Made by a program: the position numbers and the translations under genes. 64,000 bases of DNA from Ktedonobacteria bacterium. GTDB lineage: Bacteria > Chloroflexota > Ktedonobacteria > Ktedonobacterales > JACDGC01. The first letter of the stretch is position 1. Every line of letters begins with the position of its first letter. The notes under the pieces are model-generated. The model searched no databases and had not been told where the DNA came from. It worked only from the letters and a program-made list of their open reading frames with translations. The stretch covers positions 12,326-76,325 of the forward strand of contig DAIDIC010000210.1 in assembly GCA_027459525.1 (NCBI GenBank), read 5' to 3'. Below are positions 9,520 through 60,686 of the stretch, piece after piece.

Positions 9520-9657
9520 TAGGACTTTCGCTTGAAAGAGCAGCGCATGGTTTCTCGTATCTGCAACAAAAGGAAATCTGGGGCCACCCCAGAACCCCGT
9601 ACAAGGGGATCCGCCCCTTGTACATCCCCGATTTTCCATGCTGCAGCAAAAGTCCTG
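9520..9657 (+). mobile_element. MITE-like structured repeat, copy 2 (forward)
   Basis: Full-length copy close to the consensus. Flanks TTTTT / TTCTT (4 of 5 identical). Lies between livK and livH, antisense to the operon. Confidence 0.85.
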
Positions 9658-9854: not shown

Positions 9855-9973
9855 CGCTACTCAGTATGCTAAACGCCATACAGCGTTAAGCGCCATATAG
9901 TATCCTTTAGTATGGACAAATATGCCCAAGGTTAGGTTCGCCTTATTGAAGGGCAGGCTGACTACAACAGCCA

Positions 9974-10177
9974 CTACGCGCTGGCCTTACGGCGAACACG
10001 CTGCATGCGCTTGTCCTGATGGCGATCAGGCAATGGCAAGAAATGCAGACGAAGGAGGCAAGACGCCACTCCATCCACGAATGCGTCGGGAGCATACCGG
10101 CGCAAAATATTGTACGCCCCATTGACATCCGCATTGAGCAGGGTTCCAGTGGCTAAGCGGAAGACCTTGCAGAGTTT
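9974..10177 (-). pseudogene. tnpB: C-terminal relic of a TnpB (IS200/IS605 or IS607 OrfB-type RNA-guided nuclease) gene
   Basis: Own minus-strand translation: KLCKVFRLATGTLLNADVNGAYNILRRYAPDAFVDGV..., i.e. the characteristic NADVNGAxNILRK...P.AF..G tail of TnpB. Only about 67 codons, no start and no upstream RuvC motifs. Begins immediately after the livK stop. Confidence 0.6.
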
Positions 10178-15651: not shown

Positions 15652-15788
15652 CAGGACTTTCGCTGCAGCATGGAACATCGGGGATGTACAAGGGGCGCCG
15701 CCTCTTGTACGGGGTTCTGGGGTGTCCCCAGACCTTCCTTTGCTGCAGATGCAAGAACCATGCGCTGCTCTTTCAAGCGAATGTCCTA
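15652..15788 (-). mobile_element. MITE-like structured repeat, copy 3 (reverse)
   Basis: Reverse complement of the consensus. Perfect 5-bp direct repeat ATTTT (15647-15651 / 15789-15793). Lies between flp and cpaB. Confidence 0.9.
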
Positions 15789-25038: not shown

Positions 25039-25057
25039 CTATATATATATATCTGAT

Positions 25058-25194
25058 CATGACTTTCGCTGCAGCATGGAACATCGGGGATGTACAAGAG
25101 GCGGCGCCCCTTGTACGGAGTTCTGGGGTGTCCCCGGACCTCCCTTTGTTGCAGATACGAAAACCATACGCTTCTCTTTCAAGCGAAAGTCTTA
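25058..25194 (-). mobile_element. MITE-like structured repeat, copy 4 (reverse)
   Basis: Perfect 5-bp direct repeat CTGAT (25053-25057 / 25195-25199). The termini carry substitutions (ATGAC.../...GTCTT). Confidence 0.9.
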
Positions 25195-28066: not shown

Positions 28067-28204
28067 TGGGATTTTCGCTGGAAAGAGAAGCGCATGGTTC
28101 TCGTATCTACAACAAAGGGAGGTGTGGGGGGCATCCCAGAACCCCATACAAGGGGCGGAGACCATTGTACATCCCCGATGTTCCATGCTGCAGCGAAAGT
28201 CCTG
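28067..28204 (+). mobile_element. MITE-like structured repeat, copy 5 (forward)
   Basis: Full length but diverged at the 5' end (GGGATTTTCGCTGG). No recognisable target duplication (TTTTA / TTATT). Confidence 0.8.
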
Positions 28205-28352
28205 TTATTATTGAGATAACCACTATCAACTCGTACTTGCGCTCTGGCCAGCAACCCAGAAAATAGGCAAAGGCAGAATGAGCGCAAATAAACAAGAATA
28301 TATAAATAATTATTTATATATAAAAATATTTACATTTATTCATAAAAATTGC

Positions 28353-28382
28353 TTGACTTTTGCCAGGTAAATCTGTTATAAA
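28353..28382 (+). promoter_or_regulatory. Candidate sigma-70-type promoter for the ArsR-MIPS gene
   Basis: TTGACT (28353-28358), 18-nt spacer, TATAAA (28377-28382), in a very AT-rich tract. Confidence 0.35.
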
Positions 28383-28453
28383 TAGGACAGGACCCTGAAA
28401 ACATCAGGATATACAAATATATAAAAATAATTTGATGTATTGGGATAAATGGT

Positions 28454-29953
28454 TTGTATCAATGGCAATCTTCTTCGGAATTTGATCACAGCCTGCGCGC
28501 ATTAGGCGATGTATACCGATTAAATATCTTACGACTGCTTGCTTCGCAAGGAGATATGACGGTATCAGAAATTACTCAGACACTTGGAAAGAGTCAGCCG
28601 CTTATCTCATTTCACTTGCGCATCCTGCGTGAGGCAGAAATTGTGCAAAAAATACAGCGCGGACGACAAGCCTATTATTCCGTAAACGATCGGGCGCTTT
28701 CGCGCATATATTCCGCAATAAACCGCTTTATTTTTGCCGCGACACCGCATGGCAATGCGCCAAACGGCCGGCAAACACCTGCAAAGGCGCCACATATACA
28801 GGCGCAAGAATCTACAAGGGAGAAATTTTCAATGGGCAAAAAAGTTCGGGTTGCAGTTATCGGCGCCGGTAACTGCGCATCCTCATTTGTTCAAGGTGTG
28901 CAATACTACCAAAACGCCAGCGAACAAGATTTTATTCCAGGCCTTATGCATGTCAACTTAGGCGGATATCATATTCATGATATCGAATTCAGCGCCGCGT
29001 TTGATATTGATTCCACCAAGGTTGGCAAAGACCTGAGTGAAGCAATTTTCTCGGGACCTAACAATACCTATAAGTTTTCCGACGTTCCCAACTTGGGCGT
29101 TACCGTAAATCGCGGCATGACACACGACGGCTTAGGCAAATATCTGTCGCAAGTGATAACTAAAGCGCCGGGATCAACCAGCGATATTGTAAAAATTCTG
29201 CGCGACACCGGCACCGATGTTGTAGTTAATTATCTTCCGGTAGGCAGCGAAACCGCTACCAAATGGTATGTTGAACAAGTGCTGCGCGCCGGCTGCGGCT
29301 TTGTTAACTGCATTCCTGTTTTTATTGGACGTGAGCAATATTGGCGCGAACGCTTTGAAGCAGAACATTTGCCGATTGTTGGCGATGATATTAAAAGTCA
29401 GGTCGGCGCCACCATTGTGCACCGTACACTTACCAGACTGTTCCGCGAGCGCGGTGTTCGCTTAGAGCGCACCATGCAGCTAAACGTCGGCGGCAACACC
29501 GATTTCTTAAACATGCTTGAGCGCGAACGATTGGAATCGAAGAAAATCTCGAAAACTAATTCGGTAACCAGCCAGTTAGATTATAATATTGGCGCCGAAA
29601 ACGTGCATATCGGCCCCAGTGACTATGTTGCATGGCTTACAGACCGCAAATGGGCCTACATTCGCATGGAAGGCCGCACATTCGGCGATGTTCCCTTAAA
29701 TATGGAACTGAAATTAGAGGTATGGGATTCACCCAATTCCGCAGGGGTGGTTATAGACGCCGTCCGTTGCGCAAAATTAGCAAAAGATAATGATGTCAGC
29801 GGCGCGCTGCTTGGTCCTTCCGCCTACTTTATGAAATCGCCGCCAGTGCAATATACCGATCCGCAGGCGCGGATTATGGTAGAGCAATTTATCAGTGAAT
29901 ACGGCGCAGGAGCCGCCGCCGCTCAGCCTTTCACTGAAACACCGGCTGAATAA
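28454..29953 (+). CDS. ino1: ArsR-type winged-HTH domain fused in frame to myo-inositol-1-phosphate synthase
   Basis: Residues about 14-80, [63 protein letters not shown], match ArsR/SmtB. From [26 protein letters not shown] the sequence is a bacterial/archaeal-type MIPS. No stop between the two parts. Internal ATG 28832 has its own GGGAG RBS. The outer start is TTG. Confidence 0.75.
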
Positions 29954-29974
29954 ACCGCACTACACGCCAAAGAT

Positions 29975-30010
29975 TTGCAAGGGGATCAGCCGCCCCTTGC
30001 AAAGGGCGGC
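29975..30010. terminator. Convergent-gene hairpin (two alternative stems), likely bidirectional terminator; related to the MITE apical hairpin
   Basis: TTGCAAGGGG (29975-29984) pairs with CCCCTTGCAA (29993-30002). Overlapping alternative: GCCGCCC (29989-29995) with GGGCGGC (30004-30010). Lies between the ino1 and PNP stops. Confidence 0.5.
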
Positions 30011-30056
30011 GTGGATATTCCCAAAAATCATTTTTCCTCTTATAAAACCTCTAGAC

Positions 30057-42109: not shown

Positions 42110-42225
42110 CAATTTTGGTTATCTTCTGCCATAATAGTATATAAAGTCTTGACGATTGCGCAGACCTATGATAGCCTACTTACTAAGATGCGCTGTCTTG
42201 GTTGTATGGCTTAATATATAATTAT

Positions 42226-42300
42226 AGGACTTTCGCTTGTTACCTTATTTGGAAATTTGCAAGGCTCTCCTTGCGCAGGATTTGGGGTATCCCTCCCAAA
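42226..42300 (+). repeat. Degenerate or rearranged relative of the MITE-like element
   Basis: Starts with an exact T-AGGACTTTCGCTTG terminus. Contains a GCAAGG-CTCT-CCTTGC hairpin and TTTGGG-GTATCCCT-CCCAAA. No matching right terminus was found. Confidence 0.35.
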
Positions 42301-42391
42301 TGCTCTCATCGGCGCAGTATGTAAGACAACCTTGAATGGTTCCGGCGGAAAACTAGCGTCAAAAAGATATTTCATACAATAAAGGGTCAAT

Positions 42392-55861: not shown

Positions 55862-55911
55862 GAATATCTCCTGTTTTTTACACTATTTATTTGCCAAAAA
55901 TCATTTACCTG

Positions 55912-56048
55912 TAGGACTTTTGCTTGAAAGAGCAGCGCATGGTTCTCGTATCTGCAACAAAGGGAGGTCTGGGGACACCCCAGAACCCCGTACAAGGGGC
56001 ATTGTCCCTTGTATATCCCCGATGTTCCATGCTGAAGCGAAAGTCCTG
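55912..56048 (+). mobile_element. MITE-like structured repeat, copy 6 (forward; closest to consensus)
   Basis: Full-length. Flanks ACCTG / ACATG (4 of 5 identical). Lies in the divergent region between the ADH and Pnkp-like genes. Confidence 0.9.
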
Positions 56049-56312
56049 ACATGGCAATTGGATGGATCATCCAAAACAATATTATAAAAAATTTTAAAGA
56101 AATGGTGATAGATCCAAAATATATTAGTTATTTCTCATGCAATTACATACTACACAAAATATATACCACCGCAGAAAATTGCGCCGGTTAAAAGATATCT
56201 GCTATACTGCAAAGAGACAGAAAAATTAATATGCTGGTGTCCGGCTTAGGCACGCAAAATATAATGAAAGGCCGGCGAACTGCGAAAGCATGCGCCGTAA
56301 ATAATCTGAAAA

Positions 56313-59210: not shown

Positions 59211-59284
59211 TGGGCAGTACAAGACTCGAACTTGTGACCTCGTCGGTGTGAACGACGCGCTCTAACCAACTGAGCTAACTGCCC
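59211..59284 (-). tRNA. tRNA-Val (anticodon CAC)
   Basis: Minus strand GGGCAGTTAGCTCAGTTGGTTAGAGCGCGTCGTTCACACCGACGAGGTCACAAGTTCGAGTCTTGTACTGCCCA folds as a cloverleaf: 7-bp acceptor, GCTC/GAGC D stem, CGTCG/CGACG anticodon stem with loop TTCACAC, ACAAG/CTTGT T stem. CCA is not encoded. Confidence 0.95.
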
Positions 59285-60408: not shown

Positions 60409-60562
60409 AGAAAATAAATACCCATCTTTGGGGAAATAAAAGAAACCTAAACGGCCCCAACGCCGTATATACCATATTAGGTGAACTATAACACAGTATA
60501 TGAGCAAAATTTTACCATATCTTTAAGAAATTTTCAATAGCAGAAAAAAACTTTTGAATATT

Positions 60563-60633
60563 CAGGACTTTCGTTTCAGTAGAAAATTTGGGGGTATACA
60601 AGGGCGCGGCGCCTCTTGCAAGCGAAAGTCCTA
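60563..60633 (-). mobile_element. MITE-like repeat, copy 7: internally deleted (about 69 nt core), reverse orientation
   Basis: Both termini (AGGACTTTCG... / ...AAGCGAAAGTCCT) and the apical hairpin are kept, and about 65 nt are missing. Flanks ATATT / ATATA (4 of 5 identical). Confidence 0.8.
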
Positions 60634-60686
60634 ATATATTAAATATATCGCCGAGCGGTTGAATAAGCGCTGAAGCGCTGCGGAAA

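Follow-up and report, generated by a model that had tools for sequence, protein, structure and literature searches.

The question raised by this locus is what the structured 137-bp sequence is that recurs in its intergenic spacers. We named it family A, and our answer, to which we give a probability of roughly 0.8, is that it is a non-autonomous DNA transposon (MITE). A first-pass annotation of the window (the whole 64-kb stretch of DNA analysed here) had listed seven copies and had described them as MITE-like, intergenic and not assignable to any known family. Using alignment and a profile HMM, we found all seven at the coordinates and on the strands that it gave, and all seven align end to end. 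Overall, the window contains six full copies (76-91% pairwise identity), one internally deleted copy and one relic; the full and deleted copies are flanked by target-site duplications (TSD), given below as left/right 5-mers:

691-828, + strand: full copy c691, supported by alignment and profile HMM; TSD TATAG/TATAG
9520-9657, + strand: full copy c9520, supported by alignment and profile HMM; TSD TTTTT/TTCTT
15652-15788, - strand: full copy c15652, supported by alignment and profile HMM; TSD AAAAT/AAAAT
25058-25194, - strand: full copy c25058, supported by alignment and profile HMM; TSD ATCAG/ATCAG
28067-28204, + strand: full copy c28067, the most decayed, supported by alignment and profile HMM; TSD TTTTA/TTATT
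55912-56048, + strand: focal copy c55912; TSD ACCTG (55907-55911)/ACATG (56049-56053)
60563-60633, - strand: internally deleted copy c60563; TSD TATAT/AATAT
42225-42305, + strand: eighth copy, a relic, found by a mismatch-tolerant search for the left end

The profile HMM, built from the six full copies, recovers all six with E-values of 1e-45 to 1e-52 and the deleted copy at 60558-60640; no further match at a comparable level was found in the 64 kb. Copy c60563 has lost about 66 nt internally and retains the left terminal inverted repeat (TIR), the second hairpin, the tail and the right TIR. In the relic, the left end TAGGACTTTCGCTTG is intact (15/15 bases) and is followed by a diverged core in inverted orientation, to which our model of the core (described below) gives 21.6 bits at 42248-42301 (- strand); neither a right end nor a TSD is recognisable there.

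Family A is 137 bp in size, with the ends 5'-TAGGACTTTCGCT...AGCGAAAGTCCTG-3' and the boundaries TAGGAC...GTCCTG. The TIRs are imperfect and about 13 bp long, and TAGGACTTTCGCT and AGCGAAAGTCCTG form a terminal helix of 12-13 bp in every copy. A second imperfect repeat, GCAGC(GC)ATGG/CCATGCTGC, lengthens the inverted repeat, so that the ends reach about 25-30 bp when indels are allowed. The parts of the focal copy are located as follows:

55912-55925 and 56035-56048: left and right TIR of c55912
55932-55942 and 56027-56034: arms of the second helix
55969-55983: hairpin 1
55990-56014: hairpin 2
55967-56023: core module

The family has no coding capacity. Gene calls on contigs near-identical to the window place no gene on any copy, and the ORFs that overlap copies are mechanical only; together with ORF/Pfam annotation of the window, this bears out the earlier view that every copy is intergenic. 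The surroundings are core chromosome (RpoD, DnaG, EF-G, RuvC, ribosomal protein L9 and Tad pilus genes). No transposase gene was detected in the 64-kb window by ORF/Pfam annotation, in agreement with the earlier statement that it holds no transposase with matching ends. The closest named homologues of the window proteins are 50-55% identical and come from Ktedonobacterales, Ktedonobacteraceae, Dictyobacter and Thermosporothrix. In a scan for loci related to that of the CpaF ATPase, the relatives among the matches listed were at most 53% identical and belonged to many phyla.

The duplications are a new observation, absent from the list of the first-pass annotation. In 7/7 copies, 5-bp direct repeats of flanking DNA abut the same element boundaries, with 0, 1, 0, 0, 2, 1 and 1 mismatches per copy, that is, 5 mismatches in 35 positions. 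As a control, we drew seven 5-mer pairs 200,000 times from AT-rich sites, where pairs have on average 3.6 mismatches; a sum of 5 or fewer mismatches over the seven pairs was reached in 0 of the 200,000 draws. The seven target 5-mers differ from one another, and the flanks of the seven copies share no conserved tetra- or pentanucleotide target.

Comparison with a sister species (GCA_027350185.1 and GCA_027399295.1), whose neighbouring proteins are 83-84% identical and which is syntenic with at least positions 1-31,000 of the window, revealed empty sites. The site of c691, by the MoxR gene, is uninterrupted in the sister species: the element and one 5-mer are gone, and the spacer is exactly 137+5 nt shorter. 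The spacer of c28067, at the inositol-phosphate synthase gene, is also empty, with flanks that are 5 nt different once the element is removed. At c9520, in an ABC-transporter spacer, the sister species lacks the element, although divergence has blurred the junction. The spacer of c15652 contains no family-A copy and a family-B element (see below) instead. Family A is missing from all of the roughly 42 kb examined in the sister species; a protein search found no sister-species orthologue near 57 kb. For c25058 the comparison comes from a distant relative (55% identical protein), in which the glycosyltransferase and kinase genes that flank the copy are just 5 nt apart; this spacing is the ancestral state of the site. 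The corresponding spacer of the sister species itself (L085 11770-11920) measures 199 nt, against 204 in the window, and is of unrelated sequence. It contains a weak, inverted core-like stretch, GAGGGAACACCCCAGG, which is not significant, and it may be a decayed insertion of another family.

Family A is previously undescribed, ordinary in kind and new in sequence. At the gathering threshold, the sole Rfam match in the window was a tRNA gene (59211-59284, - strand, 70.3 bits), about 1.3 kb from c60563; lenient Rfam searches of the family-A copies, and of a sister-species region with a partial family-B element and cores, gave only chance-level matches. Literature searches returned unrelated primers only for family-A sequence strings and ecology papers only for Ktedonobacteria together with MITE. 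A blastn search of plasmid and phage records gave no family-A match, and neither GTDB representative genomes nor JGI metagenomes contained an exact match to a degenerate 26-mer taken from the element's right half. The earlier remark that the sequence could not be assigned to a known family, for which a comparison with Rfam had been proposed as a check, thus stood in Rfam, in the literature and in plasmid and phage records.

Family A is short and non-coding, and has TIRs, a TSD of constant length, dispersed copies and presence/absence at orthologous sites. With duplications at all seven copies, empty sites in the sister species and no database match, the MITE-like character proposed earlier is substantiated. 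What is observed directly is confined to the traces that insertion leaves, namely the duplications and the empty sites. As to the process, a transposase encoded elsewhere in the genome would recognise the family-A ends and act in trans, and the element would insert into AT-rich intergenic DNA through staggered cuts 5 bp apart, yielding the 5-bp TSD. The family would have expanded in the window species after its split from the sister species, and its copies are fixed among the sampled strains and are now in neutral decay. The strong fold of the element comes from its inverted ends together with an inner 57-nt double-hairpin core, a module that other repeat families share and that is probably older.

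A rival proposal, which we consider improbable, is that the element, or at least its core, has a function as a structured DNA or RNA, either as an RNA leader or stabiliser or as a site on DNA or RNA to which a protein binds, and that it was spread by transposition and selected by the host or by mobile elements. The positions of the copies speak for it to some extent. For five or six of the seven copies the next gene runs in the same sense as the copy, and for three of these its start codon is 19-56 nt away: c25058, within the glycosyltransferase-Ser/Thr kinase gene pair, lies 19 nt before the kinase start; c691 lies 28 nt before the start codon of a MoxR-type ATPase; and c60563 lies 56 nt before that of a GDSL lipase. 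Since these copies are in sense orientation and 19-56 nt upstream of start codons, they must presumably be part of the transcripts of these genes, as structured 5' leaders or operon spacers, and would influence expression, if at all, only as a by-product. Among the others, c28067 is 250 nt upstream of an ArsR-inositol-1-phosphate synthase gene, c15652 is in a divergent intergenic spacer, and c9520 separates the binding-protein gene of a branched-chain amino-acid ABC transporter from the permease gene and is antisense to the two. A bias of 6/7 towards the sense orientation is not significant (one-sided binomial test, about 0.06), and may reflect which insertions are tolerated. Furthermore, the genes 3' of the copies (MoxR ATPase, Ser/Thr kinase, inositol-1-phosphate synthase, a kinase-phosphoesterase protein and GDSL lipase) are functionally unrelated, which argues against a dedicated cis-regulator, and there is no Rfam match.

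Two other features were seen in these spacers. Between c25058 and the ribosome-binding site of the Ser/Thr kinase gene, at 25039-25057, there is an (AT)n run, ATATATATATATA. In AT-rich DNA 5' of the ArsR-inositol-1-phosphate synthase fusion gene, at 28316-28456, there is a 40-nt direct repeat spaced 101 nt; this repeat region is unusually conserved in the sister species (L085 8450-8620), unlike the rest of the spacer, and could be an operator or promoter region.

Folding reproduced the architecture that the first-pass annotation had predicted: a terminal helix, a second helix (GCAGCGCATGG/CCATGCTG) and two hairpins, CTGGGG-ACA-CCCCAG and GTACAAGGGG..CCCCTTGTAC. The minimum free energy of the copies is -52 to -62 kcal/mol, with z-scores of -4.2 to -6.2 against shuffled controls. 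Within family A, however, the structure is not under selection. No compensatory changes were found among the copies in 45 predicted pairs, and diversity is similar in paired and unpaired columns (0.128 vs 0.175, p 0.3-0.6). Thus, with paired and unpaired columns decaying alike and without compensatory changes, the copies have the look of insertions in neutral decay. Most differences occur in a single copy only, a star-like pattern such as a burst leaves when neutral decay follows it. Conservation of the core (identity 0.82) does not exceed that of the remaining element (0.85-0.95; left end 0.87, right end 0.95), and the stems of the core decay like its loops. The alternative raised in the first-pass annotation, a functional mobile structured RNA, is consequently unsupported for the whole 137-nt element.

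More specific roles were also considered and rejected. A riboswitch or dedicated leader is at odds with the unrelated downstream genes and with the lack of covariation within family A. Promoter delivery was rejected since no consistent sigma-70-like site was found within the family, and a terminator since no U-tract follows either hairpin on the sense strand; a weak terminator-like match is present on the antisense strand only.

The core tells a different story across families. The sister species has a second MITE-like repeat, family B, 264-299 nt long, with the ends GTAACTAC-TCAGGAGG (also given as GTAACTACTCAGGAGG). We found no family-B element in the window, and three in the sister species:

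L085 8690-8988, + strand: full family-B copy with a perfect 8-bp duplication, GATATTTA
L085 21282-21545, + strand: full family-B copy with a perfect 8-bp duplication, AAAAATTC
ending at L085 2125: partial family-B copy

Two of the three occupy the same spacers as family-A copies of the window species, at different positions, which suggests that few spacers tolerate insertions. A further hairpin module of family B, X (GGGGCGACCCTTGCGGTCGCCC), has opposite orientations in the two full copies. In addition, some 87 nt within family B are homologous to the central part of family A, and at the heart of this segment is a 57-nt double hairpin: YTGGGG-ACA-CCCCAR, AACCCCG, a hairpin of 10-11 bp, and A(A/T)TCCCC.

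Taking all its occurrences together, the core has the layout YTGGGG-loop-CCCCAR, AACCCCG, a 10-11 bp hairpin and A(A/T/C)(T/C)CCC, and it is found in families A and B, in tandem (in the sister species, at L090 1556-1703), inverted (in the window, in the relic described above) and alone. The solitary cores, and those found in another phylum, are the following:

29966-30026 of the window, - strand: degenerate solitary core without family-A ends (core model 26.8 bits, E 6e-4)
L098 2791-2846, - strand: solitary core in a soil metagenome contig (JGI Ga0137380)
L099 4488-4543 and 1306-1359, - strand: solitary cores in a second soil metagenome contig (JGI Ga0137379)
L019 9635-9691, 12940-12997 and 2340-2410, - strand: double hairpins in a Vampirovibrionales MAG (JBIKUS010000039.1)

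The degenerate core of the window lies between two convergent genes, and its hairpin 2 is TTTGCAAGGGG/CCCCTTGCAAA; at the orthologous place in the sister species, this hairpin has a weak match (L085 6883-6906, 16.5 bits, E 0.28). The soil cores, at three places in the two JGI contigs, have neither family-A nor family-B ends. One core in each of these contigs lies just 3' of a truncated, IS5-like N-terminal transposase fragment; we looked for inverted ends bracketing the L098 core beside this truncated gene and found none. In the Vampirovibrionales MAG the core architecture occurs three times in 15.6 kb, with 26.8-35.5 bits; TTGGGGC..GCCCCAAACCCCGC is conserved in these copies and the second stem is quite different in sequence. 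The first of the three is flanked by inverted repeats of about 16 nt (TTTAAAATAGC...). No core was found in about 64 kb of three other Ktedonobacteria-type loci, including one of Dictyobacter kobayashii, and the core pattern had no match in viral contigs.

This recurrence, in family B, alone in soil contigs and in Vampirovibrionales, speaks for function, as do signs that the stems keep pairing. When 13 cores were aligned with plain MAFFT (a hand-made alignment), U-A/A-U alternated with C-G/G-C at two hairpin-2 pairs, a result reached by only 5-6 of 500 shuffles. In an extended alignment of 17 distinct core sequences, which the covariance model itself selected and fitted so that pairing is inflated, compensatory changes appear in 9/16 pairs and 88.9% of cells pair; all 500 shuffles stay below this, and in slid controls only 32-67% of cells pair. 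Compensatory changes maintain the core from one family to another, so the element may not be junk throughout. Mismatches of the A-C and G-U types are equally common, however (14 vs 10), and thus nothing points to RNA rather than DNA. Given this lack of an RNA strand signature, the inflated pairing, the decay of the stems within family A and the absence of the core from the other Ktedonobacteria-type loci, we regard selection for function by the host or by mobile elements as improbable, and the non-autonomous transposon as the better account of family A.

We read the core as a palindromic module of older date that different MITEs carry and that has stayed intact at the mobile-element level. A more ambitious version seems rather unlikely to us, though somewhat less so than function of the element or its core as such: the core would be an undescribed module, either independently mobile and REP-like or functional (a protein-binding site or RNA stabiliser), that MITEs unrelated to one another, differing in their ends and in the length of their duplications (5 bp and 8 bp), had captured repeatedly, and its occurrence would span at least two phyla, Chloroflexota and Vampirovibrionia.

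That family A could be a REP/REPIN-type or IS200/IS605-derived repeat, moved as a single strand by a tyrosine (HUH/RAYT) transposase and not by a DDE enzyme, is very improbable. Like REP/REPIN-RAYT systems, the family is a dense, intergenic, hairpin-forming repeat, and the 57-nt core, which occurs alone without inverted ends, resembles a pair of adjacent REP-like palindromes. There is also a trace of such elements in the genome. Directly 3' of the binding-protein gene, at 9900-10165 (- strand), we observed some 270 nt of inserted DNA that the sister species lacks; the insertion encodes ...LNADVNGAYNILRRYAPDAFVDGV..., which matches the C-terminus of TnpB RNA-guided nucleases (tblastn against annotated TnpB genes, E 2e-5 to 9e-5). 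Probably the insertion is what is left of the 3' part of an IS200/IS605- or IS607-type element, which would place elements of these types in the genome at some time, and it may include the omega-RNA region. The DNA 3' of this remnant is, however, unlike both the core and family A, and an origin of the family from it was rejected. REP/REPIN and IS200/IS605-type elements are not known to make a TSD or to have terminal inverted repeats, and family A has both; REP/REPIN and IS200/IS605-derived repeats are therefore excluded for the 137-nt element. Palindromic elements derived from IS200/IS605 (PATE) are likewise not known to have inverted ends or duplications and insert beside a fixed short target, and they were ruled out by the inverted ends, the duplications and the differing target 5-mers of family A. 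Moreover, neither a common tetra- or pentanucleotide target in the flanks nor a RAYT (Y1 transposase) gene in the 64-kb window was found.

Finally, although the window appears to derive from a metagenome-assembled genome and the near-identical contigs are MAG or metagenome contigs, the idea that the copies are an assembly or binning artefact, or chance similarity, can be dismissed, since the same copies are found at the same places in independent assemblies from different samples that are 99.8% identical to the window (ENA ERZ27237364, GCA_021812265.1, GCA_027399355.1 and Logan SRR13206618), and the copies differ from each other by 9-24%, have unique flanks and duplications of their own, and reach profile E-values of 1e-45 or better. 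The first-pass annotation had named an assembly artefact as an outcome that would overturn it, and these assemblies speak to the contrary. We saw no insertion polymorphism of family A among the near-identical strains, and thus no sign of current activity.

As a MITE family, family A accounts for long intergenic spacers of odd structure in a Ktedonobacteria-like lineage about which little is known, and its value here is mainly one of annotation. It also marks recent transposon activity separating two sister species, and it flags genes whose 5' leaders now bear a hairpin of -52 to -62 kcal/mol. A core common to two MITE families with different ends and duplication lengths, found also alone and also in another phylum, would, if true, represent a reusable hairpin cargo or an unrecognised REP-like element.

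Among known systems, family A is closest to the bacterial MITEs, which are small (100-300 bp) and non-coding, with TIRs, a fixed-length TSD and dispersed intergenic copies. Like family A, they can fold into a long hairpin when transcribed, and they often insert near gene starts. Family A differs from those known so far in its sequence, which is unrelated to anything in the collections searched, and in its host, an uncultured, soil-type, Ktedonobacteria-like member of Chloroflexota. Correia elements of Neisseria duplicate TA, whereas family A duplicates 5 bp and shares its inner module with other repeat families. TIMEs are non-autonomous elements derived from Tn3, and they also have a 5-bp TSD. 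The ends of the Tn3 family are, however, about 38 bp long and start with GGGG, whereas those of family A are about 13 bp long and start with TAGGAC/CAGGAC; a Tn3-derived TIME was thus rejected, since the duplication length fits and the ends do not. Several transposase families that make 5-bp duplications have TG...CA ends, which do not match the terminal bases TA...TG of family A. In the reuse of its core in differing combinations and orientations (in families A and B, alone, in tandem and inverted), the system resembles the BIMEs of E. coli and the BOX elements of pneumococci, which are mosaic repeats built from reused hairpin modules. The sequences are unrelated to these, and, unlike BIMEs and BOX elements, the composites described here have transposon-type ends as their boundaries, and their duplications measure 5 bp in family A and 8 bp in family B.
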